From the NCBI GenBank assembly GCA_964373675.1, contig CAYJVO010000002.1, positions 3,054-67,053 on the forward strand: a stretch of DNA of 64,000 bases, read 5' to 3'. Positions 2,770 through 62,250 of the stretch are shown one piece after another (position 1 is the first letter of the stretch; every line of letters starts with the position of its first letter). The DNA comes from an uncultured Candidatus Saccharibacteria bacterium (lineage in GTDB: Bacteria > Patescibacteriota > Minisyncoccia > UBA6257 > WO2-44-18). The translations under genes were made by a program, and so were the position numbers. Below the pieces are notes generated by a model. It worked only from the letters and a program-made list of their open reading frames with translations, searched no databases and was not told where the DNA came from.

Positions 2770-3768
2770 TGAGGGCTTTTTGTTAACGTTCAGAGACAAA
2801 AAATCGTTAGTATCATAACGAGGAATCAAAAAAGCGGAATCTTTGGGAGTAATGGAACGCCGCTCAATAGTGACCGCGTACCGGAAACCGATCTCATCCA
2901 GAAGATTAGCCGTTTCGGGGGCGTAACGGCCGTGGGGATAAGAAAAAACATCCACCCCCTTCCCCAAAAGTTCCTCCAAAATCTTTTTAGAAGTTTGCAG
3001 ATCGGCGCGCGCCTTTTCTACCGGTAATACCTCAAACGAATTATGACCATGCGAATGACTCCCGATCACCATACCCTCCGCATCAAGCTTGCGCACCTGG
3101 TCGGAGCCCATAAATAAAGCTCGGCATAAAACCTCTTCATCCAAACCGAATTTTTCAAAGTAAAAATGTAAAAACTGCTCCCTGGTAACCGAAGGCAAAG
3201 TAATCATCGCCTCTTTAAAATTATTTGTCAGCCTATCGCCGTGCTTCCGGCGATTATCAATGCTGCGATCTTTCGGAATCACGTAGGCTCCTTGCGACCA
3301 ACTGTTGAAAAGGTCAATCAGTTCGCTCGGCGACGAACGGGAAAAAAGGATGTGAAGCTTATGGGTTAAAGGCAGCTTGCCGCCGAAAATAGAAGTAATG
3401 ACAAAAAAAGTCCCGGTCGCCTTATATTTTTTTAAGATCGGCGCGGCATTTTCGTAGTTATCCCTGAATCCGTCGTCAAAGGTAAACGCGCAAAACTTAC
3501 CGGAACTTCCTTCTCGCGCGGCCTGGTATACCTCGGGCACCGAAACTATGCGGAAACGCTCGACTAACCATTGCACCTGCCGATCAAACTCCTTAATAGA
3601 GCATGGGTGAATCCCGCCCCAAGCCGGATCAGGATCCCGTACGTAGTGATAAGTAACGATGATGTAATTTTCTTTTTCCATAATGATCTTAGACGCCTGT
3701 AATCTGCGCCAAAAAATCCACGCTGCGTTTGTAGGATAATCCGTCGGTATACCGGACATGCGAAGCAA
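2764..3768 (-). CDS. polysaccharide deacetylase (NodB/CE4 family)
   Basis: FTFDDGFRDNYENAAPILKKYKATGTFFV matches the NodB motif. The true start may be the internal Met at 3681 (MEKENYIIV), which would remove the overlap with the upstream gene. Confidence 0.75.
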   Translation of the reverse strand: MLRMSGIPTDYPTNAAWIFWRRLQASKIIMEKENYIIVTYHYVRDPDPAWGGIHPCSIKEFDRQVQWLVERFRIVSVPEVYQAAREGSSGKFCAFTFDDGFRDNYENAAPILKKYKATGTFFVITSIFGGKLPLTHKLHILFSRSSPSELIDLFNSWSQGAYVIPKDRSIDNRRKHGDRLTNNFKEAMITLPSVTREQFLHFYFEKFGLDEEVLCRALFMGSDQVRKLDAEGMVIGSHSHGHNSFEVLPVEKARADLQTSKKILEELLGKGVDVFSYPHGRYAPETANLLDEIGFRYAVTIERRSITPKDSAFLIPRYDTNDFLSLNVNKKPSS

Positions 3769-5104
3769 CGATGCGCCGCCGCGCCTCGCCGTCCAGTTTT
3801 GGATTATCCAGATACAGGTTGATCAATTTCGGCAGATCTTCATCAGTTTTAGCCAAGCGCACTGCACCACTCTCGTAAATCGGTCGGTAATGGTTGAATT
3901 GGTATGCTAAGGCAAAACGATCAATATAGCCGATATTAATAATCGGTTTGTCAAAAATACAGGCCTCAATGGAAATGGTAGAAGCATAATTAATATTCAA
4001 ATCAGTATACTTTAAAGAATATTTCAAATTCAATAAATCGCCGTAATTCATTTCTACTTTCCCGTCGGTATATTTACCAGCCGGATCAATGCAAAGATCC
4101 GAAGTATTTAAAAATTCTTTGTAATGGTCGTAAACATCTAGCGGGTGGATACGAATGAATAAATTAACGTAAGGAATTATTTTATCTTCTCGCAAGCGGA
4201 TAAGATCGCGGATGTATTTTTTTTGAAATGGATACGCTTTAGTAACCGTGGTATGGAAAATTGTTTTATAAGCCGGATTTAGTCCTTTGGATTTTAAAAA
4301 CTCCTCCCTTGAGGGTATGTGATTCGAAATATCCGAATTCCATTCAAATAATTCTAAACCATCTTTGTTTTCGGATAATTCGGATGTATTAGAATTTTTT
4401 GAATCGCTTCTATCAAAGTAAGGATCAAAACGTGGCGTCCCGGAAACAAAAATCTTATCCGGCAGATAACGATGAATCTCAAGAACCTCTTTTTTAATAA
4501 TATCGTTCCAGGCAATCAAATAATCAGTTTTCCGGATATGTTTGGCATTGGTTGTCGGATTATCCCAAGAAGCGTTAATCGCAACAGTTGGAATCTTTAG
4601 CTTTTTAGCCGATAAAATAATTTCTGCCTCCCAGCTATCAAATCCCGGCGTTGCCGTAATCACCAAGGCTGGCTGATATTTCCCCGCTAATTCCAAAAAC
4701 CGCCGCGATCTTGGCAATAAGATTTCCTCCAGCCAAGTAAAAAAATCAGCGGTTAAAAACGGCGAAAAAGGCTTGCCGAAAAACCTCAAAATGCGCCGCT
4801 TCCAATTATTTTTATAATTCGGCCGCTTATACCAATGACGAATAGAGGCTAGATAATCAAACTCATTTACTAAGCTGATCCGTAAAAATTTAAAGAATTC
4901 CCAGAATTTCGGACTAGCCGCCCTCAGCTTTTCGTAAAAAACATTGGATGACTGCAGATAATTGCGCTGTTTCGCGATCTCGGCATCAATCATCGGAGTC
5001 AATACCACCGCACGGTATTTGCTTGAAAGGTATTCAATATATTTTGTCCGCAATAGGTCGCTGGTGGCAATATAATTGGGAAGCGCTAAAAAAACAGTTC
5101 GCAT
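3689..5104 (-). CDS. TagF-like CDP-glycerol glycerophosphotransferase family protein; carries an in-frame 89-bp repeat insertion
   Basis: 471 aa with a GTPRFD motif typical of the TagB/TagF family. An SD (GGAG) is supplied by the R1 repeat immediately upstream. Residues NSNTSELSENKDGLELFEWNSD are encoded by the MITE-like repeat at 4319-4407. Confidence 0.6.
   Translation of the reverse strand: MRTVFLALPNYIATSDLLRTKYIEYLSSKYRAVVLTPMIDAEIAKQRNYLQSSNVFYEKLRAASPKFWEFFKFLRISLVNEFDYLASIRHWYKRPNYKNNWKRRILRFFGKPFSPFLTADFFTWLEEILLPRSRRFLELAGKYQPALVITATPGFDSWEAEIILSAKKLKIPTVAINASWDNPTTNAKHIRKTDYLIAWNDIIKKEVLEIHRYLPDKIFVSGTPRFDPYFDRSDSKNSNTSELSENKDGLELFEWNSDISNHIPSREEFLKSKGLNPAYKTIFHTTVTKAYPFQKKYIRDLIRLREDKIIPYVNLFIRIHPLDVYDHYKEFLNTSDLCIDPAGKYTDGKVEMNYGDLLNLKYSLKYTDLNINYASTISIEACIFDKPIINIGYIDRFALAYQFNHYRPIYESGAVRLAKTDEDLPKLINLYLDNPKLDGEARRRIVASHVRYTDGLSYKRSVDFLAQITGV
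4319..4407. mobile_element. 89-bp MITE-like repeat, copy 1, in-frame inside the TagF-like CDS
   Basis: About 90% nucleotide identity to 10674-10762. The termini are inverted: GTGATTCGAAAT...TTTTTTGAATCGC. Confidence 0.65.
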
Positions 5105-5105
5105 A

Positions 5106-5215
5106 CTAAATTTTATTCTCCTTCGCCGAAAACCCCGGGCGGCCTACTCCGCCGAGTCTGACTCGGCTACGAAGGCTGGATAAGCCCGCGGGATGAAGGC
5201 GAGGAGCTTCATTTT
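5106..5215 (-). repeat. R1 structured repeat copy (supplies SD for the TagF-like gene and extends the dehydrogenase ORF)
   Basis: Reverse complement equals GAAGCTCCTCGCCTTCATCCCGCGGGCTTATCCAGCCTTCGTAGCCGAGTCAGACTCGGCGGAGTAGGCCGCCCGGGGTTTTCGGCGAAGGAGAATAAA, and ends 7 nt before the ATG at 5104. Confidence 0.7.
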
Positions 5216-6179
5216 CTAAATTCTTAATTGCCTTAACCACTAACTCGCTAATATAAACTTGAGTGCGTTCAGTGGCTTCCTCGGTAGAGCCGCCCAAATG
5301 CGGCAAAATGATCAAATTCTGATTTTTCCTGGCGTATTCCACCAACGGATTATTAATCAAATGGGCGCCGTCCGGGGATTCATCTGCCAACGTATCAATT
5401 CCCGCTCCGGCAATCCATCCTTTTTTTAAAGCCTCCAGCAATGCGACCTCATCAGTAATTTCCCCGCGGGCGGTGTTGATAAAAACGGCGGTTGGCTTCA
5501 TGAGTTTAAAATGTTCCTGTTTAAGCATTTTATAAGTAGAATCATTGTAAACAGCGTGAAGAGAAACAACATCGGATAATTTTAAAAGATTAGGCAGATC
5601 CGCCTTAACAGCTCCGTATTTTTTCATCTCGGCGGCGCCGACAAAAGGATCATAAGCCAACGCCCTCATTCCAAAGGCCGCGCTGTAGCCAGCCACCAGC
5701 CGTCCCAGCCGGCCAAAACCAATCAAACCGATAGTTTTTCCAGAAAGTTCCCGGCCGCTGTATTTAGCCCGATCCCATTCGCCTTTCTTAATCGCTTCAA
5801 ACCCCCAAGGAATTTTTCGCAACAGCGCCAAAATTAAAGCCATTGTTTCCTCAGCGGTAGAAGGAGTTTTGTGAAGAGCGGGAGCATCAGCTTTTATATT
5901 AACTATCTTAATGCCGCGCCGCCTGCACTCATCCAAATCCAAATACCTCAACTGGGTGGTGCGGGAACCGATCAGCTTTAATCTGCGCGCCCGATCCAAA
6001 ATAGGCTTATCAAACTTAACCTCCAAACCGGTCACTACCACATCGGCTTTTGACAAATTTCTAAAAAACTCCGCCCGCGATCCAAAATTAATCACCCGGC
6101 CGGATCGAGCAAGAATTTTTTTAGCTTTTGCGCTGAATTCTTTTTCCGCAATTAAAATATTAATTGATTTTTGAGCCAT
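5106..6179 (-). CDS. D-isomer-specific 2-hydroxyacid dehydrogenase (NAD-binding)
   Basis: GLIGFGRLGRLVAGY Rossmann motif and the typical family length. The last ~35 codons (RLHPAGLSSLRSRVRLGGVGRPGFSAKENKI) are read through the R1 repeat at 5106-5215, so the native C-terminus is probably earlier. Confidence 0.75.
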   Translation of the reverse strand: MAQKSINILIAEKEFSAKAKKILARSGRVINFGSRAEFFRNLSKADVVVTGLEVKFDKPILDRARRLKLIGSRTTQLRYLDLDECRRRGIKIVNIKADAPALHKTPSTAEETMALILALLRKIPWGFEAIKKGEWDRAKYSGRELSGKTIGLIGFGRLGRLVAGYSAAFGMRALAYDPFVGAAEMKKYGAVKADLPNLLKLSDVVSLHAVYNDSTYKMLKQEHFKLMKPTAVFINTARGEITDEVALLEALKKGWIAGAGIDTLADESPDGAHLINNPLVEYARKNQNLIILPHLGGSTEEATERTQVYISELVVKAIKNLENEAPRLHPAGLSSLRSRVRLGGVGRPGFSAKENKI

Positions 6180-6921: not shown

Positions 6922-7134
6922 CCCGCACATAACTAGGACTGCAACAGCCTCGCTTCTCTGAAAAAAACGCCATCATTCACAATTTTTTATCAGCAAATCT
7001 TCGTAGCAATAGCAGTTTAACGCGTTAAACGCTTTGACGCGTCAAAGCACTATCCCATGGGATAGTGCTAGGAAATAACCCCACACAGCTTTGTCTCAGG
7101 CATTGAAGAAAGCGGAGTCCTAGTTATGTGCGGG
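6922..7134. mobile_element. inverted-repeat cassette, family A copy 1 (TIR CCCGCACATAACTAGGACT / AGTCCTAGTTATGTGCGGG)
   Basis: 19-bp perfect terminal inverted repeats at 6922-6940 and 7116-7134. The interior contains the perfect palindromes GCTTTGACGCGTCAAAGC and AGCACTATCCCATGGGATAGTGCT. The interior plus right arm is repeated at 45014-45174. Confidence 0.6.
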
Positions 7135-7424: not shown

Positions 7425-7608
7425 CTGTAAGCGGAGCCGAGTCTGACTCGGCGGAGCCCCACGCCTTTGGCAGGGCAATGCTCGCCCGTGGCAGGGCGTG
7501 ACGCCCGGGATATTCTTTGAATGAAGCTCCACGGCCTTATCTAGCCTTCGTAGCCGAGTCAGACTCGGCGGAGTAGGCCGCCCGGGGTTTTCGGCGAAGG
7601 AGAATAAA
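7425..7608 (+). repeat. R1 structured repeat family (one partial and one full copy) with GCCGAGTCWGACTCGGC hairpin
   Basis: CTTCGTAGCCGAGTCAGACTCGGCGGAGTAGGCCGCCCGGGGTTTTCGGCGAAGGAGAATAAA at 7546-7608 also occurs at 5106-5170 (reverse complement) and 56953-57024. A partial copy lies at 7425-7460. The local context is GC-rich. Confidence 0.7.
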
Positions 7609-17931: not shown

Positions 17932-19139
17932 TTAGGAAAAATGGCTACATCATCAAAATAAGCAGTCCCCGCAGCAGGATCAAATTCCATCCTCAATTCA
18001 TCAAACTTATCTGCTGTACCATTATTTTGGAAACTCTCTTCCGGCGTAAAAGGACCATTATCAATCCTTACCCGATATTTATCGGTTACTAAATCAAAAG
18101 ATATAAATAGAGTATGCCAGGTATTAGGAAAATATTGACCGGCCAAAGTGCCGCCACCACTCCCAACTTCGCCGGCTGGCCTCATATGCACTGAAGCCTT
18201 AGCAATACCATTTTCCCTTAAAATAGCCACAAATTTTCCGCTGCTACTAGTAGTGCGTCTCATTCTAACGCTTAAAATTCCCTTTCCCGTAATTGGGGTA
18301 AATCTTCTATCAGCGGTTGCGGTGATACCTTGGTTCTCAACGGCTTTTAGGCCCTCAAAAACAACACTGTTTTGAACATTGTATGCGTTTGAACTCCACG
18401 CATTAGTCCACCCCGCGCCACTATTATTTCCATTAAGCGGTCCAATATCATAAATATCAAAATCATCGGACACTAATGGGGTTGGCGGCGGTGGTAATGG
18501 CGGTTCTCCGGTACCGCAATCCACAGATATAGTATTAAGGATGCCAGCAGAATTTACCGTTACTTTATGACAATTAGAGCCGTCGGTATCTTTGAGAATA
18601 ACGTCATTTAAAGTACCGACTTTGGTTATTTTAGTAAAAGGCCCGACTAAAAGATCATCATTGGTAATTGTGTTATCACCGATTGTTCCTCCGGTTCCCC
18701 CATTGACCGCATTAAGAGTTGATAATATTCCCAGTCCTAAAGATAGCCGTCCCGCCACCGCATCCAAATTAGCAGAATCACCATCCCACTGCCTTCTTTC
18801 ATTAAAGGCGGTATCCCAACCAAAAGCTTTGGCGCTCAAATCCAATCCATCTATTAAGCCGGATAATTTTATATCACCGAGAACGGAAAGATTGCCAGCT
18901 ATGTCCACTTTTTCTACCGGGGCATTCGTTCCTATGCCAACTTGATCGGTTTGGGTGGTTAACCTCACAACCGTTCCGCTATCTGTCCATCCCGCTGGAC
19001 CACCTTGAGCCGGAGCGCCAGCAGGGGGCCCCTGGGCCTCGACCAACTGTGTCTCATCGTTGCGTGAAGGAAAATAAATAAACGCCGCCACAATCAAAAC
19101 TACGACAGCGAGAGCTAATAAAAAGGAGTTTTTGGTCAT
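17928..19139 (-). CDS. secreted/membrane-anchored hypothetical protein (N-terminal TM, Gly/Pro-rich linker, beta-rich C-domain)
   Basis: MTKNSFLLALAVVVLIVAAF signal anchor followed by GPPAGAPAQGGPAGW. No catalytic motif recognised. Confidence 0.4.
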   Translation of the reverse strand: MTKNSFLLALAVVVLIVAAFIYFPSRNDETQLVEAQGPPAGAPAQGGPAGWTDSGTVVRLTTQTDQVGIGTNAPVEKVDIAGNLSVLGDIKLSGLIDGLDLSAKAFGWDTAFNERRQWDGDSANLDAVAGRLSLGLGILSTLNAVNGGTGGTIGDNTITNDDLLVGPFTKITKVGTLNDVILKDTDGSNCHKVTVNSAGILNTISVDCGTGEPPLPPPPTPLVSDDFDIYDIGPLNGNNSGAGWTNAWSSNAYNVQNSVVFEGLKAVENQGITATADRRFTPITGKGILSVRMRRTTSSSGKFVAILRENGIAKASVHMRPAGEVGSGGGTLAGQYFPNTWHTLFISFDLVTDKYRVRIDNGPFTPEESFQNNGTADKFDELRMEFDPAAGTAYFDDVAIFPN

Positions 19140-20239
19140 GAATTTAATGATAGCATTTTATTGTAAATAACGTTGTATAGCTGGGCAGTTTTCCCCCAAC
19201 TCATTGAACGCGCAAAAGAAATCGAATTTTTCGACATATCAAACCTCAAATCGGGATTAGATAATATTTTCTCCATAGCGGCTGAAGCGCTCTTTGGGTT
19301 CTGCGGACTTACCAAAATGCCGTTCTTCCCGTCCCTAACCGCGTCTTCCGCGCTAGTTTCTTTAGTAGTAATCACCGGCAATCCGGCGGCCGCCGCCTCC
19401 AAGAAAACCAGTCCAAAACCTTCAATGTCTTTGTTAACATCCTGCGGCATTAATATAAAAAGCTCGGCGTTTTTATAAACCGATATCAATTCTTCCTCCG
19501 ATAAATTTTCTAAAAAAACAACCCGATCTTGATACTTGATACTTGATACTTGCCGCTGAAGCGCTTCGTACTCCGGCCCTTTCCCGACAATCACGTATTT
19601 CAAACCTGGAAACTTCTTGGCTACTTCCGCGAATGCCGCGATTGAATATTCGTATCCTTTTCGTTGCTTTAATGTTCCAACGCTTAATATATAAGGTTTC
19701 AATTTCTGGACTTCCGATGTCCCAATATTGACGTCAATGGTTTGGACATCGGAAGTCCCTGATATTGATTCGAATTTTGTAAAATCAACGCCGTGATTAA
19801 TAACAGAGATTTCCAAATCCGGCAAAAATTTCTGGATTTCTCTTTTGGTATTATTACTAACCGCTATTACCCTAAACGCTCTTTTATACGCCCATTTCAT
19901 AATCGGCCGTCTCCACCAGCTGTAAAACGGCTTAACCGCCCCGGTGCCAATGCCGGTTATAATTAGTTTTTTTCTTGATCCTAAAGATACTATGGCCGCA
20001 ATCACGCCATATGGCCAGCCATCCAAGGCATGAATAATATCGCAATATTTAAAGGCTCGACGAATACAGAAATAGAAAAAAGGTAATTGCCAACATTTTT
20101 TCGGCAAACCGCTATCATGAGTTAAAACTTCATATTGAAAATCTGGAACAATCTTTTCAAGAGCGCTGATTAGCGAATGATAAAACCGCCCGGCGCCAGT
20201 TTTATCGCTTAAATCATGATTAAGATAACAAATTTTCAT
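19136..20239 (-). CDS. GT4-family glycosyltransferase
   Basis: YVIVGKGPEYEAL...FGLVFLEAAAAGLPVITT is the GT4 C-domain signature. A heptamer-repeat-encoded loop (QVSSIKYQ) is present. Confidence 0.8.
   Translation of the reverse strand: MKICYLNHDLSDKTGAGRFYHSLISALEKIVPDFQYEVLTHDSGLPKKCWQLPFFYFCIRRAFKYCDIIHALDGWPYGVIAAIVSLGSRKKLIITGIGTGAVKPFYSWWRRPIMKWAYKRAFRVIAVSNNTKREIQKFLPDLEISVINHGVDFTKFESISGTSDVQTIDVNIGTSEVQKLKPYILSVGTLKQRKGYEYSIAAFAEVAKKFPGLKYVIVGKGPEYEALQRQVSSIKYQDRVVFLENLSEEELISVYKNAELFILMPQDVNKDIEGFGLVFLEAAAAGLPVITTKETSAEDAVRDGKNGILVSPQNPKSASAAMEKILSNPDLRFDMSKNSISFARSMSWGKTAQLYNVIYNKMLSLNS
19528..19552. repeat. heptamer tandem array (CTTGATA x3.5) inside GT4 CDS
   Basis: CTTGATACTTGATACTTGATACTTG. 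It is in-frame and encodes QVSSIKYQ. Confidence 0.8.
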
Positions 20240-20518
20240 CCCGTTAGAGACAGGGAGCGTTTTAATCGATTTTTGATATATCGCTTTCCCATGCCTGATT
20301 TTAAATATAGTTCCCTCGACTTTGCGTCTTGTTCATTTTCGCATGCTTCAAAATATATTAATTCCCAAGGTCCACGATTTTTAGTGAAGCCATGTAAATC
20401 ACTGTTGCGTTATTTAAAACGCTTCCGTAAATCTGCCGTATATCCTGTATACCATTGTCTATTCTTTTTGCTTTGTAAAACATAAACATAATAAAACATT
20501 ATTGTCTCTAACGGGATC
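20237..20518. mobile_element. inverted-repeat cassette, family B copy 2 (CATCCCGTTAGAGACAG ... TTGTCTCTAACGGGATC)
   Basis: Arms at 20237-20253 and 20502-20518. The left-arm CAT is the start codon of the GT4 gene. The right arm abuts the stop codon of the next methyltransferase gene. The interior is 248 bp and AT-rich. Confidence 0.6.
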
Positions 20519-21242
20519 ATCGTTGTAAAATATAAATAATCTTTGCCCCCCAGCGGTTTTCTAAATAATTCCTCAATGGTCTGCTGAAAGAGACCAATCG
20601 GTAAACCAATTTCCGCAATCGTCCTCTAAGCCCGTCAAAAATCCGTGGAGTGATAAAATACTCTCTGTCCACTAATTGAAAATATTTAAGAACTGTCTTT
20701 TTAAAAATTGCCGGGGTTAAAATCGTAATATGATTATTACGTTCATGATAAGCGGGAAACTCGCCATGCTGTAAAAAATATTGGCGATTTACGGGAGAAG
20801 CCACATTGATAGAGGACATTATCAGCAAACCGCCGGGCTTGAGAACCCGCCGCGCTTCGCGGATAAAATTATGAGGATTTTCCAAATGCGGGATCAAACA
20901 CCAGCCAGTAACCACATCAAAAAATTTATCCGGCCAAGGAATAGATTGAAAGCTTAAATCAGCAGTTTTAAATTCTTTTAAAAAACTAACTCTTTCCGGA
21001 TTGAGATAATTACCGATATCCACGCCATAAATATTTCGGTAACCAGCTCCATGAACAGCCGAGATGAATCCGCCGCTCGCCGCGCCGCAATCCAAAACCG
21101 CGGCTCCATAGAGAGGGCCGACATATTTTTGAAAAACCTCTAAGCCCCTGCCGCGGCGAATGGTCGGCCCGGTAAATTTACTTAGCCGTTCTTTAACTGT
21201 TTCATGATGCTTTTTAAGTTCTTCAGGAGATAGGTACTGCAT
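20517..21242 (-). CDS. class I SAM-dependent methyltransferase
   Basis: VLDCGAASGGF is motif I. It is paralogous to the next gene. Confidence 0.7.
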   Translation of the reverse strand: MQYLSPEELKKHHETVKERLSKFTGPTIRRGRGLEVFQKYVGPLYGAAVLDCGAASGGFISAVHGAGYRNIYGVDIGNYLNPERVSFLKEFKTADLSFQSIPWPDKFFDVVTGWCLIPHLENPHNFIREARRVLKPGGLLIMSSINVASPVNRQYFLQHGEFPAYHERNNHITILTPAIFKKTVLKYFQLVDREYFITPRIFDGLRGRLRKLVYRLVSFSRPLRNYLENRWGAKIIYILQR

Positions 21243-21252: not shown

Positions 21253-21933
21253 TTACTTCTTTCTTAACACATAATAAATATAGCGGCCAAACCATTGATT
21301 TGCCGGAAGGATTTTTTTAAGCAGTTTATTCAAAAATAAAAATTTAAATTCTGATTTTGAATATTCGGTTGTCACTAAATCAAAATACTTCAAAAAAGTC
21401 TTTTTAAAAATTGCGCGGGTAAAAAATGTAATGTGATTATCGCCTTCCAAAAAATGATAAATATCGCCGCGCCAGAAAAAGAGCAGCCGATTCAAAATAT
21501 GAAATGGGTTTGGAGTGGAAATAATAAATATCCCGCCCGATTTTAAAACCCGAAACACTTCCCGTCCGAAAAAATAAGGATTCTCTAGGTGCTCAACCAG
21601 TTGGGAAGCTATTACTCCGTCAAAATGACTATCCGGCCACGGCAATTTATCCAAGCATAAATCAGCTTTAGAAAATTCGAATTTCTTGGCCGGCTCAGAA
21701 CGATAATCATCAATGTCCGCGCCAGTCAAATTCTGATAACCGGCTTCCGAAAACTGCGAAAGCAGGGAGCCATCGGCTGATCCGCAGTCTAAAATCGGCC
21801 GCGAACGATCGGGCAAATATTTTTCCGCTAAACCTAAAATCTTGCCGCTGCGAATATCCCAACTGGAACGCTGCTGCAGATGCAATAGCTCATTTTGTCT
21901 ATTTTTTATTTCATCTGGATCAAGGTATTTCAT
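21253..21933 (-). CDS. class I SAM-dependent methyltransferase (paralog of 20517-21242)
   Basis: ILDCGSADGSLL is motif I. The conserved C-terminal block (LENP...GG...I.S, NHIT...AIFKKT.LKYF.LV..EY) is shared with the neighbour. The longest ORF starts MCGM... inside the cassette arm, so the Met at 21933 is preferred. Confidence 0.7.
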   Translation of the reverse strand: MKYLDPDEIKNRQNELLHLQQRSSWDIRSGKILGLAEKYLPDRSRPILDCGSADGSLLSQFSEAGYQNLTGADIDDYRSEPAKKFEFSKADLCLDKLPWPDSHFDGVIASQLVEHLENPYFFGREVFRVLKSGGIFIISTPNPFHILNRLLFFWRGDIYHFLEGDNHITFFTRAIFKKTFLKYFDLVTTEYSKSEFKFLFLNKLLKKILPANQWFGRYIYYVLRKK

Positions 21934-22042
21934 CCCGCACATAACTAAGACTGCAGCAACGCTGCAATCCTATTTTAACTTTTTAACTTTTTTCACCATA
22001 ATATATCTAATTTTTAAAATAGTCTTAGTTATGTATGGGATG
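21931..22042. mobile_element. inverted-repeat cassette, family A copy 2 (CATCCCGCACATAACTAAGACT ... AGTCTTAGTTATGTATGGGATG)
   Basis: 22-bp terminal inverted repeats with a 68-bp AT-rich interior that has promoter-like hexamers. Both termini present an outward ATG. The left one is the MTase start codon. Confidence 0.65.
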
Positions 22043-23383
22043 CAATATAAGATTGGCCAAGCGTTCTCCTGATTTGCCATCCAACCATACACAGGCATTT
22101 TTAGCAATTGCACTATTTCCTTCTCTGCCAATAGAAGGATTGGCTAAATAATATCTTGCCAACTCAACTAATTCCTGCGGACTGCGGGCAATTTTAAGCG
22201 AGCCCTGATTAATAACTGCTTGCTGATGTTCATATTCATAATACCGTCTTAAACTGTCCCAAAAGGGCTTTGGTTTTTCTCCGTCAAGGCCAATTAGCAC
22301 GATGGGTTTATTGAAAATCGCGGCGTCCAAAACAATGCTTGAGGGGCTTGTGACTGCCACATCGCTATGGTAGATCAGATCGGCCAGATGTTCATCATCG
22401 CCGCGGCGTAGTAAGGATTCTTCCAATCGGGCCGCGCTTTTAGGAATGTCAAAAACCATATACGGCGGCGGAGTAAAATCGCTTATTTCCGCTCCTCCAA
22501 AAATCGGAAAGCGCACCACTACCTGTTCTCCAACGCCGGCTAAAATCTTCAATAAATATTTATTAAAAGAAGTGTCGCCGGTCCAAATATCACTCGGCGG
22601 AGTCACAAAAATCAATTTCCGATTCGGATCTAATTTCAGTTTTTCAAAAAATTCTTTGCGAGGCGTTCGTTTTCCTAAAATGTAATGATCGTAGTGAGGA
22701 TACCCCACCACTGCTGTCACATCAGCAGGCACACTGTGATATTTAACAGCCCAATCTTTAATCTGATTATTCTGCACCGCTAAGATATCTGGTAAGGTAC
22801 GCAGCAATCCCTTAGTTGTCATGGCGTCCCAAGAACGACTCATCGCAATGCTTTTAATACCTTTTCTTCTAGATTCTCTGACTAAATAAGTGTCACTGTA
22901 CTCCTGAACTCGCAAATCCTGAATGTCAGTAGCAAAAACTAACTGCGGCTGGTATTTGGCAAACAGGGCGTCATAGCCGCCAGCCGGTACTAACCAATAA
23001 TCAAGCCAGCGAAAAAATTTTCTGACTAATCCAAAACTGCCCAACCAGCTCAGAAAAGAAGTGAACCAATAGCGCAAATAATTGCGATCTTTCCCTAACT
23101 GCACCAGCTTATGAATTTTTTTGCTGCGATTATGCAGTAAATTCCACGATAAAACGTGAAATAAGAGATTGATTTTAGAGAGAGGACGAAACGGCACTTC
23201 CTCCACAATTATATTGCCTCCCCCAAACTCTTTTTGAAAAAATTCTCCCTTTTTCTCTGGTACTAAAAGTACAATTCTAAGATTTGGCTGACTTTTTAAC
23301 AAAGCAAAGGCGTCGGTCTCCAGTATATTACGGACAACCAGATTGAAAAAACCGGTAAAGAAAATTGTTTTGGGAGGATTCAT
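22025..23383 (-). CDS. TagF-like/capsule-biosynthesis glycerophospho- or glycosyl-transferase family protein
   Basis: 452 aa, paralogous in architecture to 3689-5104 (FNKPIVLIG vs FDKPIINIG C-terminal block). Confidence 0.5.
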   Translation of the reverse strand: MNPPKTIFFTGFFNLVVRNILETDAFALLKSQPNLRIVLLVPEKKGEFFQKEFGGGNIIVEEVPFRPLSKINLLFHVLSWNLLHNRSKKIHKLVQLGKDRNYLRYWFTSFLSWLGSFGLVRKFFRWLDYWLVPAGGYDALFAKYQPQLVFATDIQDLRVQEYSDTYLVRESRRKGIKSIAMSRSWDAMTTKGLLRTLPDILAVQNNQIKDWAVKYHSVPADVTAVVGYPHYDHYILGKRTPRKEFFEKLKLDPNRKLIFVTPPSDIWTGDTSFNKYLLKILAGVGEQVVVRFPIFGGAEISDFTPPPYMVFDIPKSAARLEESLLRRGDDEHLADLIYHSDVAVTSPSSIVLDAAIFNKPIVLIGLDGEKPKPFWDSLRRYYEYEHQQAVINQGSLKIARSPQELVELARYYLANPSIGREGNSAIAKNACVWLDGKSGERLANLILHPIHN

Positions 23384-37083: not shown

Positions 37084-37165
37084 ATCCGTATCAGGTATCA
37101 AGTGTCAAGAATTGAAATTTGCTAATGTTATAAAAAAATGTAAACCTGATACTTGAAACATGAAA
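37084..37165. promoter_or_regulatory. divergent intergenic region: inverted heptamer arrays (GTATCAGGTATCAAGTGTCAAG / CCTGATACTTGAAACATGAAACC) flanking a 33-bp AT-rich core
   Basis: The two arrays are in opposite orientation around AATTGAAATTTGCTAATGTTATAAAAAAATGTA, which carries TTGAAA and TATAAA hexamers, between the regulator and galU. Confidence 0.5.
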
Positions 37166-37984
37166 CCCGCAACTAAAGTATCAACTGCCGTTCTACCGGT
37201 TGCCGGACTGGGAACCAGATTAATGCCTTTAACACTCCACCAGCCAAAAGCCATGGTCGGTATTATTGATCGGCCGGTTATTCATTATGTAATTGACGAG
37301 GTGTTGACTGCTGGCATCAAAAACATTGTTATCGTGATCGGGCCCAAACAAAAAGAATTTAAAAAATATATTCAATATCTCAAAAAATGCGATCCGGAAT
37401 GGCAAAAATTGAAAATTCATTTTGATTTTGCAATCCAAAAGATGCCCCGCGGAAACGGAGAGGCGATTTTATGCGCAGAAAGATTTATTAAAAAACAACC
37501 CTTCTTGCTTTGTTTCGGCGATGAGATTTTAGCAGCTAAAGAATCGCCGCTCAAAACCATGCTTCAATTATTTTATAAAACCAATCTCCCCGCCCTAATC
37601 GTGGAACCGGTTCCTAAAAAACTGATTCCTCAATACGGGATAGTGAAAATCAAAGATGGCGAAATTTTAGACATTGTGGAGAAGCCAAAAATTAAAGAAG
37701 CTCCCTCAAATCTGGCCATTATCGGTCGTTATATCATTACGCCGGAAATCCTGCCTTTTATCAAAAAATTGGCTGCTCAAACGCCGCTAGACCAAGAAAT
37801 ATATTTAGCAGACGCCCTTCGGCTCTATTTAAAAAATAGTGGGCGAATTCTTGGCTGGAGATTTACCGGACAAAGATTTGACGCTGGTTCCAAGCTCGGC
37901 ATCCTTAAAGCGCAAGCTTATTTTGGTATCCATCATAAAAAGCTTGGCAAAGAATTTAGAAAATTTCTTAAACGGAGTTTATGA
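37160..37984 (+). CDS. galU: UTP--glucose-1-phosphate uridylyltransferase
   Basis: LPVAGLGTRLMPLT...PKAMVGIIDRPVIHYVIDE is the GalU N-terminal signature. 274 aa. Confidence 0.8.
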   Translation: MKPATKVSTAVLPVAGLGTRLMPLTLHQPKAMVGIIDRPVIHYVIDEVLTAGIKNIVIVIGPKQKEFKKYIQYLKKCDPEWQKLKIHFDFAIQKMPRGNGEAILCAERFIKKQPFLLCFGDEILAAKESPLKTMLQLFYKTNLPALIVEPVPKKLIPQYGIVKIKDGEILDIVEKPKIKEAPSNLAIIGRYIITPEILPFIKKLAAQTPLDQEIYLADALRLYLKNSGRILGWRFTGQRFDAGSKLGILKAQAYFGIHHKKLGKEFRKFLKRSL

Positions 37985-42888: not shown

Positions 42889-43371
42889 ATGCAATTATTG
42901 TTTAACAATTCCCTTGGCGCCAAACTAACCCCTGATGATGTCATCGGCGAAATAATCAAATTCATGAACGCTGATCCTCATCGCTGTTATAAAGTCATCA
43001 TCGGAACTGATTCGGAGCGTTCCGCTGACAACACCGCCGATTTTGTAACGGCAATTGTCATTCACCGCTTAGGAAATGGCGGGCGATACTTTTGGCGACG
43101 GATTGAACCAAAAACCAAATATCACACCTTAAGGGGCCGCATCACTGGAGAAGTTTTGATGTCTTTGGACATTGCCCGGGAATTACTTCAGGCTATGAAA
43201 AATTACCAAGTTCCGAAATTTGATTTTGAAATTCATGTGGATGTTGGGGAAAACGGCGCGACTAAAACAATGATTCAGGAACTAGTCGGCATGATTCGGG
43301 CTAATAATTTTGAAGCCAAAACCAAACCCGAAAGCTACGCCGCCAGCAAAGTCGCGGACCGCCATATTTAG
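42889..43371 (+). CDS. RNase H-like fold protein (YkuK/DUF458-like)
   Basis: 160 aa. The KVIIGTDSE strand with a catalytic-type Asp resembles the DUF458 family. Assignment is from memory of the family motif. Confidence 0.35.
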   Translation: MQLLFNNSLGAKLTPDDVIGEIIKFMNADPHRCYKVIIGTDSERSADNTADFVTAIVIHRLGNGGRYFWRRIEPKTKYHTLRGRITGEVLMSLDIARELLQAMKNYQVPKFDFEIHVDVGENGATKTMIQELVGMIRANNFEAKTKPESYAASKVADRHI

Positions 43372-43398
43372 TTTCAAGTTTCAGGTGTCAGGTATCAA
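43369..43398. repeat. heptamer array (reverse orientation; AGTTTCAGGTGTCAGGTATCAAG) 5' of four-helix-bundle gene
   Basis: Reverse complement is CTTGATACCTGACACCTGAAACT. Confidence 0.75.
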
Positions 43399-43402
43399 GT
43401 AA

Positions 43403-43759
43403 ATGGAAAAGGGTTATAAAAAATTGATGGCCTACCGCGAAGGTCACAAATTAGTTCTGCAAACTTATCTTGCAACTAGTAAGTTTCCTAAGTCAGAATT
43501 ATTCGGACTTGTTTCTCAAATGCGTAGGGCGGCGGTGTCTGTGGTGGCAAACATCTTAGAAGGCCAGGCCAGAATAAGTAAAAAGGAATTTAAAAATTTC
43601 ATCTCTATCACTAATGGATCCCTTGTTGAATTGGAATATTATCTTGAACTATCACGAGAATTGAATTACATTAACAGGAACGATTATGAGGAAGTAGAAA
43701 AGCAAAGAGCTCTTACTGGCTCTTTATTGGGTGGATTACTTCGTTACCTTAAATCTTAA
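43403..43759 (+). CDS. four-helix-bundle protein (23S rRNA intervening-sequence protein family; Avd-like)
   Basis: 118 aa. YREGHKLVLQTY...LVSQMRRAAVSVVANILEG...NGSLVELEYYLELS matches the TIGR02436-type four-helix-bundle family. Confidence 0.7.
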   Translation: MEKGYKKLMAYREGHKLVLQTYLATSKFPKSELFGLVSQMRRAAVSVVANILEGQARISKKEFKNFISITNGSLVELEYYLELSRELNYINRNDYEEVEKQRALTGSLLGGLLRYLKS

Positions 43760-43830
43760 CTTGACACCTGACACCTGATACCTGATACCTGACACATAAC
43801 ACCTGACACCTGATACATGATACATGACAC
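43759..43830. repeat. heptamer array, about 10 units (CTTGACA CCTGACA CCTGATA ... CATGACA), 3' of four-helix-bundle gene and overlapping start of next ORF
   Basis: Direct reading of 43759-43830. This is the longest array in the window, in the opposite orientation to 43369-43398. Confidence 0.85.
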
Positions 43831-44937: not shown

Positions 44938-45013
44938 GATTTTCTCCTGTAAAAAGCCGGCTGGTATAATATCACATCTACAAAATAATGCAAGCCCCCA
45001 CGCCTAATAAGCG

Positions 45014-45174
45014 CTTCCACAATTTTTTATCAGCAAATCTTCGTAGCAATAGCAGTTTAACGCGTTAAACGCTTTGACGCGTCAAAGCACTATCCCATGG
45101 AATAGTGTTAGGAAATAACCCCACACAGCTTTGTCTCGGGCATTAAAGAAAACAAAGTCTTAGTTATGTGCGGG
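45014..45174. mobile_element. partial copy of family A cassette (interior plus right arm AGTCTTAGTTATGTGCGGG)
   Basis: About 95% identical to 6975-7134. It is flanked by a 23-bp direct repeat GCAAGCCCCCACGCCTAATAAGC (44989-45011 and 45175-45197) and followed by a 16-bp-stem hairpin. Confidence 0.6.
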
Positions 45175-45226
45175 GCAAGCCCCCACGCCTAATAAGCACC
45201 TCTTTTATTAGGTGTGGGGGCAAGCC

Positions 45227-46162
45227 TTATCCGGAGATTAATTTTTTAAATTCTTTCAGTTTGGCTAAAAAGGTTTTTTTATCCTTAGCTTCTAAGTTCA
45301 GGCGCAGGAGGTCTTCGGTCTGTGATGGCCGCACATTAAACCACCAGGCCCCAAATTCCATTTTCAGACCATCTAGATGAGAAAGTCTTTGGGCTTCTTT
45401 TTTATATTTCTGTTCAATCTTTGTTAAAATTTTTTCTTTGTCGCTGACTCTAAAATTTATCTCTCCGGAACGATGATATTTTGGTAAGCCATCAATCCAC
45501 TCACCCAAACTCAAGCCTTGATACCTGATACCTGATATCTGATTCATAAAATAAATCGCCGTCAAAATTCCTGAATCCCAAACCGCGCTGAATTCCTTAA
45601 ACTTAAAGTAGTAATGCCCGGAAGTTTCGGCAGCAAAATCAATTTTCTTTTTATTCATCAGTTTTTTAATAAAGTAATGGCCAACTCGCGAATTAATAAT
45701 TTTTTTGCCATCGGCTGAAATCAATTCTCTGGCTAAATAGCCGGCGCGAACATCTAAAATCAAGGGTCCTTTAAAACTTCTACTTATCAACACTGCCACC
45801 GCATCCGGCGCCACCGGCTGGCCACGATCGTCTAAGAAAAATACCCGATCACCATCCGCGTCAAAAATAATGCCGAGGTCGGCTTTATGTTTACGCACTG
45901 CTGTCCGCAAATCATTAAACGCATCTCTCCTCCATGGATCCGGCCCATGCGCCGGAAAACGACCATCAGGTCTATCATTAATTAAAATAGGCTTAACTCT
46001 TGATACTTGACGCTTGACACTTGATACTCGGAAAAGTTCTTTAAGAACTTTTCCGGTGGTTCCATTAGAGCAATCAAAAACAACTTTTAAAGCTCTTTCT
46101 AGCTTTAAAAACTTTTTCAAAAAATTTATGTATAACTCCAAATAATCCATGTCGCATTTCAC
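45227..46162 (-). CDS. phosphoglucomutase/phosphomannomutase, C-terminal domains II-IV (split from N-terminal ORF; GTG start)
   Basis: 311 aa starting at a GTG that overlaps the stop of the upstream ORF (AAAATGTGAAATGC). Contains in-frame heptamer arrays at 45527-45546 and 45999-46028. Confidence 0.65.
   Translation of the reverse strand: MKCDMDYLELYINFLKKFLKLERALKVVFDCSNGTTGKVLKELFRVSSVKRQVSRVKPILINDRPDGRFPAHGPDPWRRDAFNDLRTAVRKHKADLGIIFDADGDRVFFLDDRGQPVAPDAVAVLISRSFKGPLILDVRAGYLARELISADGKKIINSRVGHYFIKKLMNKKKIDFAAETSGHYYFKFKEFSAVWDSGILTAIYFMNQISGIRYQGLSLGEWIDGLPKYHRSGEINFRVSDKEKILTKIEQKYKKEAQRLSHLDGLKMEFGAWWFNVRPSQTEDLLRLNLEAKDKKTFLAKLKEFKKLISG
45527..45546. repeat. heptamer array (CCTGATA x3) inside PMM CDS
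   Basis: CTTGATACCTGATACCTGATATCTGATT. It encodes QISGIRYQG. Confidence 0.75.
45999..46028. repeat. heptamer array (CTTGAYR x4) inside PMM CDS
   Basis: CTTGATACTTGACGCTTGACACTTGATACT. It encodes VSSVKRQVSRVK. Confidence 0.75.
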
Positions 46163-46614
46163 ATTTTGCCTTTTACCATCGATAAAATTTCCTTGCCGCT
46201 GATTGGCGCTGCTTTCGGCCCAACAATTTTTAACCCGTTGTATTCTTTTGGGTTATGGGAAGCCGTGATTATAATCCCGCCAATTGCCTTAAAATGGTTT
46301 ACCAAAAAATAAAGCATTGGCGTGGTGATCATTCCCGCTTCCACAATCTTGACACCTGATACCTGACACATGACACGCACCATCGTTTCATACAACGCCG
46401 GCGAGCTCAATCTCGCGTCGTGTCCCACCATTACAACTTTTGACTTTTGACCTTCCCTCGACCTGAGCTCGGGACGAAGGTTGGCTTTTGACTTGAAAAA
46501 ATAGCGACCCAACGCGTAGGCAATTCTAGCCGCTATTTTTTCATTTATCTCCTCCGGATACCGACCGCGGATGTCGTATGCTTTGAATATTGCTTTATTT
46601 ATCATTAGTTTCAT
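46159..46614 (-). CDS. phosphoglucomutase/phosphomannomutase, N-terminal domain I (contains active-site TASHNP)
   Basis: GGIIITASHNPKEYNGLKIVG is the PGM/PMM phosphoserine loop. 151 aa, ending 4 nt into the next ORF. Confidence 0.7.
   Translation of the reverse strand: MKLMINKAIFKAYDIRGRYPEEINEKIAARIAYALGRYFFKSKANLRPELRSREGQKSKVVMVGHDARLSSPALYETMVRVMCQVSGVKIVEAGMITTPMLYFLVNHFKAIGGIIITASHNPKEYNGLKIVGPKAAPISGKEILSMVKGKM
46339..46368. repeat. heptamer array (CTTGACA CCTGATA CCTGACA CATGACA) inside PMM N-domain CDS
   Basis: It encodes VMCQVSGVKI. Confidence 0.8.
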
Positions 46615-60102: not shown

Positions 60103-61005
60103 CTATAGGGCCGTTTCAATTATATAATCTAAAAGTTTCTGAAAACTTATCCCAACTGCTTTCGCCCCCTGCGGCAACAAACTCATCTCTGTCATTCCCG
60201 GCAAGGTATTAATCTCCAAAACGTATAAATTACTGTTCTCTATACTCTTTCCTCTATCCTCTAAAATAAAGTCTGTCCGTGAATATCCCTTCGCCCCAAT
60301 CGCTTTATGGGCCTTCAGTGCCGCCTGCTGGATTTTTTTAATCATCGGCGGCGGCAATTTCGGCGGCGTAATTTCCCGCGACGCGCCTTTTACGTATTTC
60401 GCTTTATAATCAAAAAACTTTGATTTAGAAATAATCTCCGTTGGCAAAAGCGGCCTCAACTGGCCGCCGACTTCCAGCACTCCGCAAGTCAGCTCACGGC
60501 CGGCAATATATTCCTGTGCCATGATTTTCCTGGAATGACCCGCGGCATTTTTCACTGCCATTTCCAATTCTTTAAAATTTCTGGCGATATTCACGCCGAC
60601 GCTGGATCCCCGATCCGCCGGTTTTATTACTATAGGAAAACCATTTGGCCGACCGGGCACCAGCAATCCGACTTTTTTAAAAACTGCTTCGGAGGCCAAC
60701 TTATCCATCCCTAACTCACTGGCCTGACTGCCGGATCCCGTAAAAGGAATTTCCAGTTTTTCCAAAATCCGCTGAACCGTCCCATCTTCACCATATTCTC
60801 CGTGCATAGCGATAAAAACCACATCAAAATTTTTCTTAAGCTGATCAAAGGTAATTGGCCACTTGCAGGATTTAGAAACCCTTATCGGTCTGGCATCATA
60901 CTTGGCGTGATCTAAAAATTTCAGCACCATTTGGCCACTCTTTAAAGAAATAGCGTGCTCTGCCGACGGCCCGCCCATTAAAACGGCGACGCGAATTTTC
61001 TTCAT
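60103..61005 (-). CDS. ddl: D-alanine--D-alanine ligase
   Basis: MKKIRVAVLMGGPSAEHAISLKSG at the N-terminus, an ATP-grasp core, and LEINTLPGMT at the C-terminus. Confidence 0.9.
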   Translation of the reverse strand: MKKIRVAVLMGGPSAEHAISLKSGQMVLKFLDHAKYDARPIRVSKSCKWPITFDQLKKNFDVVFIAMHGEYGEDGTVQRILEKLEIPFTGSGSQASELGMDKLASEAVFKKVGLLVPGRPNGFPIVIKPADRGSSVGVNIARNFKELEMAVKNAAGHSRKIMAQEYIAGRELTCGVLEVGGQLRPLLPTEIISKSKFFDYKAKYVKGASREITPPKLPPPMIKKIQQAALKAHKAIGAKGYSRTDFILEDRGKSIENSNLYVLEINTLPGMTEMSLLPQGAKAVGISFQKLLDYIIETAL

Positions 61006-62123
61006 AATTTCTTCTCAATAAGCCGCCTTACTACTTTATTCCATTTTCTCAACGGCTCATTAATAAACAAAGCTACGGCTTTTTCTCTTGAGTAGCCGAA
61101 TTCCTCCAATGTTTTAATTGCGCCAACCGCGTCATGTATCAACTGTTCGTACTCAGATTTTAAAACATTTTCAGCGGCCTCTTTTACTAAGCCGGGGAAA
61201 GATTTTTCCAACCGCTTTTCCAAAAATGGAATCTCCCGCTCTCTGATCTCCCGGAAATAATCATACCTGCCTTCGCCCGGCTTTAGCCGCAATAAAATTC
61301 TTCTCGGCTCCTCGCCTGTGGAAAAATAAGCTAAAATTTCATCCTTGGCGCGCGATTCCGCCCATTCTCGCTGTTCCCTCAAATAACGCTCGGCCAAATT
61401 CTTTGCTTCGCTTCTGGTCTGCGCCGGTTTTTCATTTAATAAAATAGTGCGATCTCTTTCTTCTTTAAATAAATGATTAATGGCGTGCTGTTCTTCGTGG
61501 ATTAGTGTCTGCGGCTTTTCGTTTTCTGGAACTTTTGCCGCGTTTTCAGCAATAATTGTTCCTTCAAGCTCGGGTATTAAAGATTTACGAATGTGAGCTC
61601 CTCTACTGACCTCGGCTGCTGCCAAATCGCGTTCTGTTAAAACCCGCTTTTCCGCAAAGGCCTGACTGCGTATTAAAGCATAATCTCTCAAATCATAGCA
61701 TCTAAAATACACAGTCATCGGTCCTTGAACCACCTCTACTTTGCCTTTTGGCGCTTGCCCGAATACTGCCTTAAAAAGGTCAGAGGGGTCAGGAATTCCT
61801 TCTGCCGCCTTTTTCACTGCCTCATGTTTAAGTCTATAACGGGCCAAAATAGTTCTAGTGATCAGTTTTTGTTCTTCTGTAAGACCGAATCTTTCCCCCA
61901 TTTCCTCAATAATGCTGTTTAACTCTTGAGGACCTATATCAGGATTGGCCCTGATGTTTGCTATAAGTTTTAATTCCAAATCAGCGATTCCTTCTTTTTG
62001 CGCCGCCAGCTTTTCTTTAAATTCTTCTAACTTGACTCGTTTCTCCTCTTTTGGGGCCTTTCTAACTTTTTCCAATTCCTCTTTAGACGAAAACTGTTCT
62101 GAAAACTCCAGCTTCTCTTTCAT
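61002..62123 (-). CDS. hypothetical protein
   Basis: About 373 aa and charged/helical. The longest ORF begins MCGM inside a cassette arm, so the Met at 62123 (MKEKLEF) is preferred. Confidence 0.4.
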   Translation of the reverse strand: MKEKLEFSEQFSSKEELEKVRKAPKEEKRVKLEEFKEKLAAQKEGIADLELKLIANIRANPDIGPQELNSIIEEMGERFGLTEEQKLITRTILARYRLKHEAVKKAAEGIPDPSDLFKAVFGQAPKGKVEVVQGPMTVYFRCYDLRDYALIRSQAFAEKRVLTERDLAAAEVSRGAHIRKSLIPELEGTIIAENAAKVPENEKPQTLIHEEQHAINHLFKEERDRTILLNEKPAQTRSEAKNLAERYLREQREWAESRAKDEILAYFSTGEEPRRILLRLKPGEGRYDYFREIREREIPFLEKRLEKSFPGLVKEAAENVLKSEYEQLIHDAVGAIKTLEEFGYSREKAVALFINEPLRKWNKVVRRLIEKKL

Positions 62124-62195
62124 CCCACACATAACTAAGACTGCAGCAACGCTGCAATCCTAATACTAGTCTGACCTTTTAACTTTTTAACTTGT
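62121..62195. mobile_element. partial family A cassette (left arm CATCCCACACATAACTAAGACT plus about 50 bp shared with copy 2; no right arm)
   Basis: CATCCCACACATAACTAAGACTGCAGCAACGCTGCAATCC...TTTTAACTTTTTAACTT matches 21931-21995. The arm CAT is the start codon. Confidence 0.55.
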
Positions 62196-62250
62196 TTCAT
62201 CTTTCCCAATTTAACAAAAAACCGAGCGGATAACCAGTTAAATGCTCGGT

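Follow-up and report, generated by a model that had tools for sequence, protein, structure and literature searches.

Miniature inverted-repeat transposable elements (MITEs) that are co-transcribed with genes are represented in bacteria by the Correia elements (NEMIS) of Neisseria and by the ERIC sequences of enterobacteria, both about 100-150 base pairs (bp) in length and bounded by long-stem terminal inverted repeats. They occur in many copies at gene boundaries, have a short target duplication and no transposase gene, and are present or absent between relatives. The genomes of Patescibacteria are small and densely packed, and little is known about their mobile DNA and their translation starts. 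In this study, we analyzed a 112-bp cassette located at positions 21931-22042 of a stretch of 64,000 nucleotides (nt), hereafter the window, from contig CAYJVO010000002.1 of an uncultured Candidatus Saccharibacteria bacterium. The cassette is probably a non-autonomous, decaying, MITE-like derivative of a family of start-codon-docking GIY-YIG elements of Patescibacteria, whose full-length members are about 290 bp long and have a single gene, coding for an 85-amino-acid (aa) GIY-YIG nuclease of the UPF0213/SLX1 type. It resembles Correia/NEMIS and ERIC in size, stem-forming repeats, copy number, gene-boundary location and insertion polymorphism. Unlike them, its family sits exactly on start codons and in one orientation, with the ATG rebuilt from the terminal bases of the element; the distal arm gives stop codons, a short open reading frame (ORF) is conserved, and the coding relatives found carry only a GIY-YIG gene and no DDE transposase.

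The two arms of the cassette, CATCCCGCACATAACTAAGACT (21931-21952) and AGTCTTAGTTATGTATGGGATG (22021-22042), are inverted as claimed in the original prediction and complementary at 20 of 22 positions, and a repeat search of the window extended the inverted repeat to 27 nt at 89%. In this copy the repeat runs 5 nt past the family arms into both flanking genes (TATTT at 21926-21930 and CAATA at 22043-22047). The CAT at 21931-21933 was correctly recognized as the start codon of the minus-strand methyltransferase gene (21253..21933; Pfam PF08241), in the junction GGG/ATG. This ATG is the native start: the window protein begins with MKYLDPDE, and both its paralogue (20517..21242; MQYLSPEE) and its L066 orthologue (MKYLDPEE) begin at the corresponding residue. 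The longest methyltransferase ORF does begin at 21942, with an in-frame ATG of the arm and reading MCGM, and the MCG extension thus obtained turned out to be a choice of the gene callers, which switch between arm ATG and junction ATG (10262 in L036 and 10271 in L037).

Reading on the minus strand away from the methyltransferase gene, the start codon is preceded by the gene-proximal arm, in sense GTCTTAGTTATGTGCGGG (21934..21951), which contains the in-frame ATG (21942-21940) and the TAG stop that the internal ORF uses in intact copies. Adjoining it is the GC-rich hairpin that had been predicted as TGCAGCAACGCTGCA and was confirmed at 21952..21966 (minus strand, TGCAGC-GTT-GCTGCA); other copies have CGGC-TTC-GCCG at that place, which represents one compensatory double change. 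The internal mini-ORF follows at 21970..21999 and reads MVKKVKKLK before its stop: about 14 nt have been deleted with respect to the intact 21-codon ORF of the copy at 62135-62200, leaving 9 codons. The distal arm, in sense CCCATACATAACTAAGAC (22022..22039), encodes the last residues (PIHN) of the upstream minus-strand gene 22025..23383, a member of the CDP-glycerol glycerophosphotransferase family (Glyphos_transf, PF04464), together with its stop TAA (22027-22025), which the earlier reading had missed. The distal flank CAT (22040..22042) is a His codon of this gene and the plus-strand ATG there is coincidental; the mini-ORF described from it (ATG at 22040, reading MQYKIGQAFS and a stop) exists as a frame but is antisense to the 3' end of a real gene. 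The two arms of the window copy agree at 16 of 18 positions and, folded as RNA, the whole unit gave -39.8 kcal/mol with z = -6.3.

The recurrence of the arm in the window is not due to chance. Five occurrences of the 22-mer with up to three mismatches were found where 0.00 were expected, and six of the 14-mer core with up to two mismatches vs. 0.35 expected. The consensus CCC(A/G)CACATAACTA(A/G)GAC is present six times in the window and at about 18-20 distinct loci in other Patescibacteria. There are four arm-bearing copies in the 64 kb. The second copy had been described as ending at 62195; it is real and abuts the ATG (62123-62121) of gene 61002..62123, as stated, but it extends to 62200. 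It lies on the minus strand (62124..62200), lacks the distal arm, and consists of the proximal arm (62124-62141), the hairpin (62142-62156) and the intact 21-codon ORF, MKQVKKLKGQTSIRIAALLQS plus stop (62200-62135).

Outside the window, an exact-pattern scan with the arm gave four loci in genomes, from two other Patescibacteria assemblies, and 28 metagenome contigs, the majority of them from groundwater of the Hainich well H41. The species-representative genomes contributed only these four loci, and the genome of the window is not among them. Three subfamilies share the same arms and have unrelated interiors: one of about 125 bp, to which the cassette belongs, another of 66-67 bp, and the 213-bp type of the window. 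The MITE-like units measure 106-129 bp from arm to arm, contain only ORFs of 9-24 codons and no transposase gene, and have arms of 18-20 bp in which 16-18 of 18 positions match within each element. The 125-bp type is asymmetric and consists of the distal arm CCCACACATAACTAAGAC, an AT-rich stretch with the short ORF, the GC hairpin, the proximal arm GTCTTAGTTATGTGTGGG and the ATG. The cassette family combines most of the traits by which MITEs are recognized, namely small size, absence of a transposase, terminal inverted repeats, dispersed copies and insertion polymorphism.

In all 18 distinct MITE-like loci with a proximal arm, among which are both window copies and a variant in L034, the GGG of the arm is directly followed by the ATG that opens an ORF. 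When the six docked GIY-YIG elements described below are included, every docked copy is oriented in the same way with respect to its host gene (24/24), and the claim that the gene-proximal terminus forms part of the start codon holds for every one of them (...GGG/ATG). By Pfam, the docked host genes include HisS, L36, S18, L13, Mur ligase, NusG, SecY and an exonuclease; by name they include secY, nusG, rpmJ, rpsR, rplM, hisS and def, some of them essential. Identical arms flank unrelated genes in several genomes, so that the arm is a repeated element, as originally proposed, rather than a protein N-terminal motif. Homologues of the Glyphos_transf protein start with MKTIFITC..., and P0016 is annotated as MCGMKKTIFITC... 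because an element sits ahead of its gene. It must be noted that L027 (1291-1415) was left out of these counts as a probable assembly chimera with 2-3x coverage. In it, the distal flank of the secY locus (L019) is joined to the proximal flank of the Mur ligase locus (L009) across one element; this is probably a chimera, although it may reflect recombination between copies. Two Logan contigs of the organism of the window, L033 at its start and L035 at its end, terminate inside the element, and therefore the repeat breaks short-read assemblies.

The original prediction interpreted the cassette as invertible: recombination between the arms would flip the interior while the CAT...ATG termini keep a start codon available, resulting in a phase-variable switch. 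The symmetric termini (AT-CCC...GGG-AT) would indeed rebuild the ATG in either orientation in principle, and this single copy presents an outward ATG at both ends. However, no sign of inversion was found. The interior is asymmetric and a single orientation relative to the host gene was observed in the 24 docked copies. The outward ATG at both ends is a property of this copy only, since the other paired copies of the long subfamily have AAT or GAT as their distal flank, and the plus-strand mini-ORF is antisense to the end of a real gene. Among the neighbors of the cassette, the only ones screened for it, there is no recombinase gene (Glyphos_transf, methyltransferases and a glycosyltransferase), and two Logan contigs of the same organism, broken at the element, have the same sequence and orientation. 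Inversion is thus refuted at the level of the family, and we consider it extremely improbable.

Mobility of the element is indicated by the comparison of orthologous junctions. Contig L034 holds a syntenic operon with a flippase, a Glyphos_transf and two methyltransferase genes. The Glyphos_transf/methyltransferase junction, filled by the cassette in the window, is an uninterrupted ATGA overlap in L034 and a short spacer in L066 and L067, while at the flippase/Glyphos_transf junction an element is present in L034, and the window, L066 and L067 have an ATGA overlap. The copies are therefore both dispersed and polymorphic for insertion, with reciprocal filled and empty junctions. In addition, five MITE-like loci (L008, L011, L013, L023, and L034) have the opening pentanucleotide of the host gene, ATGGA or ATGAA, on both sides of the element, and ATGRA is also duplicated on both sides in five GIY-YIG loci. 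The 66-bp type has TCAA on both flanks, and TCAA/TTGA is duplicated in four loci of the C...G-ended type.

An excision footprint was also sought. The Glyphos_transf orthologues of the window (23383-23360, minus strand) and of L066 and L067 (near 1201) open with ATGAATCC, reading MNP..., whereas most homologues start with MKT; these are the same eight bases as the distal junction ATGAAT/CC of the docked elements. No clean footprint could be derived, and this start may be either a coincidence or the footprint of an earlier element.

Covariation of the two arms was measured in 11 distinct elements: 99% of the cells are paired and 10 of 18 positions have changed on both sides, a level that was reached by none of 500 shuffles. 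This fits symmetric recognition by one protein, or the requirement of a stem in DNA or RNA. SLX1 is a structure-specific endonuclease, and an SLX1-like nuclease would make the stem reading attractive. The conserved complementarity is also compatible with a host cis-regulatory RNA module, in which the arm stem of 18-20 bp would be a processing or occlusion site (e.g., for RNase III) separating the cistrons and freeing or masking the AUG. The folding energy and z-score given above, the position of the stem base, abutting the upstream stop and the downstream AUG, and the presence of copies within essential operons, one site being common to two diverged lineages (L013 and L030), agree with such a module. 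Likewise, inserts that carry GIY-YIG genes and are not introns have been reported in ribosomal RNA (rRNA) genes of the candidate phyla radiation (CPR) (PMC11270868). In contrast, presence and absence at orthologous junctions, the flanking duplications, the existence of nuclease-carrying relatives with the same ends and the unrelated interiors of the subfamilies argue against it. Rfam 15 gave no family at gathering score, the window yielding only two tRNAs, and local scans by E-value returned only generic hairpins (plant miRNA precursors) at 20-30 bits, far below cut-offs of 135-140, for which reason a known RNA family was rejected. A host module is therefore an unlikely explanation of the family; nevertheless, action of the stem at the RNA level, for instance through processing at its base, deserves to be taken seriously as an alternative and would be compatible with mobility.

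The link between the short copies and a nuclease comes from L034, where a weak profile match led to a unit of 292 bp (3737-4028) with perfect inverted repeats of 18-19 bp (CCCTCACATAACTTACGC(T)) around a gene for an 85-aa GIY-YIG protein. The nuclease gene stops within the proximal repeat, after which the sequence continues as GTTATGTGAGGG/ATG, the ATG being that of a glycosyltransferase gene. Both sides of the unit show the duplicated ATGAA, and the original TAAAAT-N7-ATG has been kept upstream. Similarly, L046 retains the original TATAAT-N9-ATG upstream of the distal junction. The homologues of the L034 nuclease form 59 clusters, mostly of exactly 85 aa, and comparison of their contig flanks revealed five further independent sites built in the same way. 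Four of these five carry the perfect 18-bp repeats CCCACACATAACTTACGC/GCGTAAGTTATGTGTGGG, their hosts being pilM, def, a holin-like gene and a small ORF. The outer 13 nt of these repeats are identical to those of the cassette arm, and 15 of 18 positions match; overall, the cassette arms have 13-15 of 18 bases in common with the terminal repeats of the elements of about 290 bp. At nine independent sites the units span 276-301 bp from repeat to repeat, leaving room only for a PF01541 ORF of 85-87 codons. Six of them are docked on an ATG, all on the strand of the host gene, while L048, L054 and L060 are not docked. The hosts are at least six unrelated genes (pilM, def, two glycosyltransferase genes, the holin-like gene and the small ORF), which share only ATGRA. 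The nuclease of these full-length relatives, which is not encoded by the 112-bp copy, matched PF01541 with E = 9e-18; the nearest solved structures are those of UPF0213 proteins, followed by SLX1, and the wider UPF0213 family comprises 6,720 cluster representatives at E <= 0.001.

The window itself contains a GIY-YIG element on the minus strand (20240..20515), two genes away from the cassette and with its own 13-bp inverted repeat (CCCGTTAGAGACA/TGTCTCTAACGGG). Its docking site is the ATG (20239) of the glycosyltransferase gene 19136..20239, with the junctions ATGAT/CCC ... GGG/ATGAA, and its 87-codon ORF (20499-20236) is inactivated by an in-frame TAA (20412-20410). This pseudogene with different arms is the sole GIY-YIG gene of the 64-kb window, in which no intact one was found. 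Because of it, and of the imperfect arms and truncated mini-ORF of the cassette, the window copy is probably immobile now. Most simply, it is a fossil, tolerated since both flanking genes stay intact.

A conventional insertion sequence as the source of these repeats, with the GIY-YIG gene as a passenger, must also be considered; the cassette would then be an ordinary MITE of an element not seen here. The nuclease has 85 aa and no DNA-binding domain and, to our knowledge, the bacterial elements characterized so far that have terminal repeats and target duplications depend on transposases of the DDE type or on other dedicated ones, all of which would favor a passenger. Nevertheless, the complete units at the nine independent sites have space for the GIY-YIG ORF and for nothing else, this ORF stops within the proximal repeat, and its last codons and the repeats have changed together. 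No other transposase-like ORF was found between or next to the arms in the fetched loci. This alternative is consequently regarded as rather improbable, and an insertion sequence with a DDE-type transposase was discarded, the repeats enclosing the PF01541 ORF only. A classical homing endonuclease gene was discarded as well; the GIY-YIG family would fit, but there are many unrelated targets instead of one cognate site.

As compared with described nuclease-borne systems, the elements recall GIY-YIG homing genes (I-TevI and the phage Seg proteins) and the CPR rRNA inserts (PMC11270868) in being small selfish cassettes with GIY-YIG as the sole gene and a spared host gene. They differ from these in that the nuclease is a bare UPF0213/SLX1-like catalytic domain of 85 aa without DNA-binding extension, and in their perfect terminal repeats of 18-19 bp, flanking duplications, non-coding derivatives and many ATGRA-sharing target genes. 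A single small nuclease-type gene is framed by a sequence in inverted orientation that occurs elsewhere as dispersed, short palindromic doublets without coding capacity, an arrangement reminiscent of REP/REPIN sequences and their RAYTs. However, RAYTs are HUH/Y1 enzymes and REPs carry a GTAG/CGTC tag, neither of which is present here, and REPINs are extragenic and not tied to start codons.

Many relatives of the GIY-YIG protein are of a different type. P0115, P0122, P0179 and about 35 others are fusions of 200-340 aa, in which the GIY-YIG domain is followed in frame by a prepilin N-terminal methylation motif (..SGAG/FTLIE.., PF07963), as if the nuclease gene were located in a pilin leader. Others have N-terminal MNPAP.. 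extensions, twice in P0133 with ..RCGM.. in between, which suggests nested docking.

The internal ORF of the short copies was also analyzed. In the 125-bp copies it has 21-24 codons with the consensus MIINKTKG..LISKITASPQS, is preceded by TAATAT/CAATAT-N7 and ends at the TAG within the proximal arm, 11 nt before the host ATG. All 11 aligned copies keep this frame open, as against 1-4 stops in each of the other two. The insertion in L011 is of 3 nt and in frame, and an upstream in-frame ATG replaces the lost one in L005 and L028. A length of 21 codons is likewise seen in the divergent copy at 62135-62200 and in the variant of L034; in the latter, the ORF ends in a TGA that overlaps the host ATG. 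A collapsed GIY-YIG ORF was ruled out as its origin, there being no similarity outside the arms. The full-length elements have, in addition, a residual ORF (ATG AAT CCC ACA CAT AAC TTA CGC TAA) that is opened by the host promoter and ATG they retain; it ends 1-2 nt before the nuclease ATG in L034 and L042 and continues in another frame in L046; the nuclease ORF, for its part, ends 12 nt before the rebuilt host ATG. Concerning the genome of the window, Shine-Dalgarno-like motifs were detected at only 5 of 54 starts, TATAAT-like hexamers are located 6-11 nt before the ATG at 14 of the 54, as leaderless transcripts would look, and operon genes commonly overlap by 4 nt.

From these data, the following mechanism can be proposed for the preferred reading, that of a start-codon-docking GIY-YIG element and its short derivatives. 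The elements, with ends (A)T-CCC...GGG-A(T), occupy the first bases of the host gene, and the proximal end with the following TG(RA) rebuilds the start codon, so that the host reading frame is left intact. The distal arm supplies TAA in two frames and closes any translation entering the element; in L019, L028 and the window copy, the upstream ORF stops inside this arm. Movement of the short copies may be brought about in trans by the GIY-YIG nuclease of full-length relatives, whose substrate would probably be a stem or cruciform formed between the arms. Translation of the host gene would depend on ribosomes passed on from the internal ORF, either the nuclease gene or the 21-codon mini-ORF, whose stop lies 11-12 nt before the rebuilt ATG, in a setting poor in Shine-Dalgarno motifs and with many leaderless-looking starts. 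Because the peptide is not conserved and the frame is open, we propose that the decisive feature is that ribosomes translate as far as the host start (termination-reinitiation), and the strict orientation bias (24/24) would reflect this relay. Such a relay resembles known termination-reinitiation coupling (ATGA, TAATG), given that 11-12 nt separate the stop of the internal ORF from the host ATG, except in the L034 variant and the pseudogene of the window, where the two overlap as ATGA. Unlike in ordinary translational coupling, the upstream partner would come from an inserted element.

Several observations weigh against this reading, in whole or in part. Eight Hainich loci lack the ATGRA duplication and have TAA-T/CCC...GGG/ATG instead, TAA being the stop of a long upstream ORF. 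The window copy lacks it as well, since its distal flank is GCAT and only AT is shared, as in the eight TAAT loci. One insertion chemistry does not cover all junctions. Regarding single cut geometries, those with 2-bp AT and 18-bp arms, 4-bp TGRA and 19-bp arms, or 2-bp GR and 20-bp arms were discarded, as none fits both the ATGRAT and the TAAT classes. The element shared by L013 and L030 at the secE-nusG junction also fits the long-term retention of a useful sequence, and many metagenome loci are short, low-coverage contigs from one aquifer that may represent few genomes. With respect to the nuclease, no full-length element with the exact inner arm of the cassette (..CTAAGAC) was found, the link consists of association and shared termini only, and the 85-aa GIY-YIG domain has no obvious DNA-binding module. 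As for the internal ORF, its variable columns are distributed 10/10/9 by codon position, 92 synonymous vs. 340 non-synonymous codon differences were counted, and two copies have earlier stops. A functional peptide was excluded by the absence of codon-position bias and of synonymous excess, only the open frame and its end points being kept. Finally, the promoter-like stretch claimed for the interior was not supported, as the consensus scan gave no sigma-70 promoter within the element on the strand of the gene. The idea of an internal promoter has as its sole support the likeness of TAATAT/CAATAT-N7-ATG to the start-proximal hexamers of the window. The proximal arm was judged a poor -10 box for a leaderless transcript (AGTTAT-N7-ATG, with three of six TATAAT positions and the key A absent).

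The window contains other repeats. A 213-bp relative of the cassette (6922..7134) has perfect 18-bp arms (CCCGCACATAACTAGGAC) and a different, palindrome-rich interior with three perfect palindromes (AGCACTATCCCATGGGATAGTGCT, CTTTGACGCGTCAAAG, and GTTTAACGCGTTAAAC); it is undocked, at a distance of 36 nt from a gene start. A one-armed copy of it, 95% identical over 166 nt, is located at 45018..45174 and is bracketed by the 23-bp direct repeat GCAAGCCCCCACGCCTAATAAGC at 44991-45013 and 45175-45197. The right repeat is half of a hairpin downstream of a phosphomannomutase-like gene that seems to be split into two minus-strand ORFs (45227..46162 and 46159..46614) with a 4-nt overlap. The Saccharibacteria contig L004 likewise has a short element downstream of a phosphomannomutase-like gene. 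A further repeat of 80-87 nt occurs in three copies that are 88-96% identical (5111-5197, minus strand; 7529-7608 and 56938-57024, plus strand); CAT/CCCGCGGG opens two of them and the Shine-Dalgarno-like GAAGGAGAATAAA ends all three. The copy at 5111-5197 provides gene 5106..6179 with its last ~30 codons and has a Shine-Dalgarno-like GAAGGAG whose end is 13 nt ahead of the ATG of gene 3689..5104. Tandem arrays of a 7-nt unit (ACCTGAT/ACTTGAC type) are present at many intergenic sites (19527, 28548, 29716, 37089-37169, 43371-43403, 43756-43840, 45502-45548, 45991-46037, and 46340-46386), and inverted arrays flank the small ORF 43403..43759.

No description of such elements was found in the literature on GIY-YIG elements with inverted repeats, MITEs of Patescibacteria and UPF0213, whose full-text coverage was incomplete, so that a prior description is possible. 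The family is set apart from described bacterial MITEs by docking on start codons in one orientation, the rebuilding of the ATG, a conserved short ORF, and GIY-YIG as the only coding partner found. Beyond the identity of the cassette, we tentatively suggest, as a possibility held with less confidence, that these sequences represent a new class of prokaryotic transposable element. It would be moved by a minimal GIY-YIG nuclease of the SLX1/UPF0213 type acting on the stem of the co-varying repeats, would target A/TGRA, and would survive in highly compact genomes of the leaderless type through the rebuilt start codon and the handing on of ribosomes, even ahead of secY, nusG and ribosomal protein genes. 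The in-frame fusions of GIY-YIG and prepilin would then be another harmless docking on the 5' end of a gene.

From a practical point of view, copies of the element break assemblies and cause gene callers to fuse ORFs or to append spurious MCG- or MNP- N-termini. If the proposed reading is true, landing on start codons, rebuilding of the ATG and the possible feeding of ribosomes would constitute a new route of persistence for selfish DNA in streamlined genomes. Moreover, if the 85-residue GIY-YIG protein mobilizes the elements, the large UPF0213 family would gain a function, and bacteria a type of transposon without a conventional transposase.

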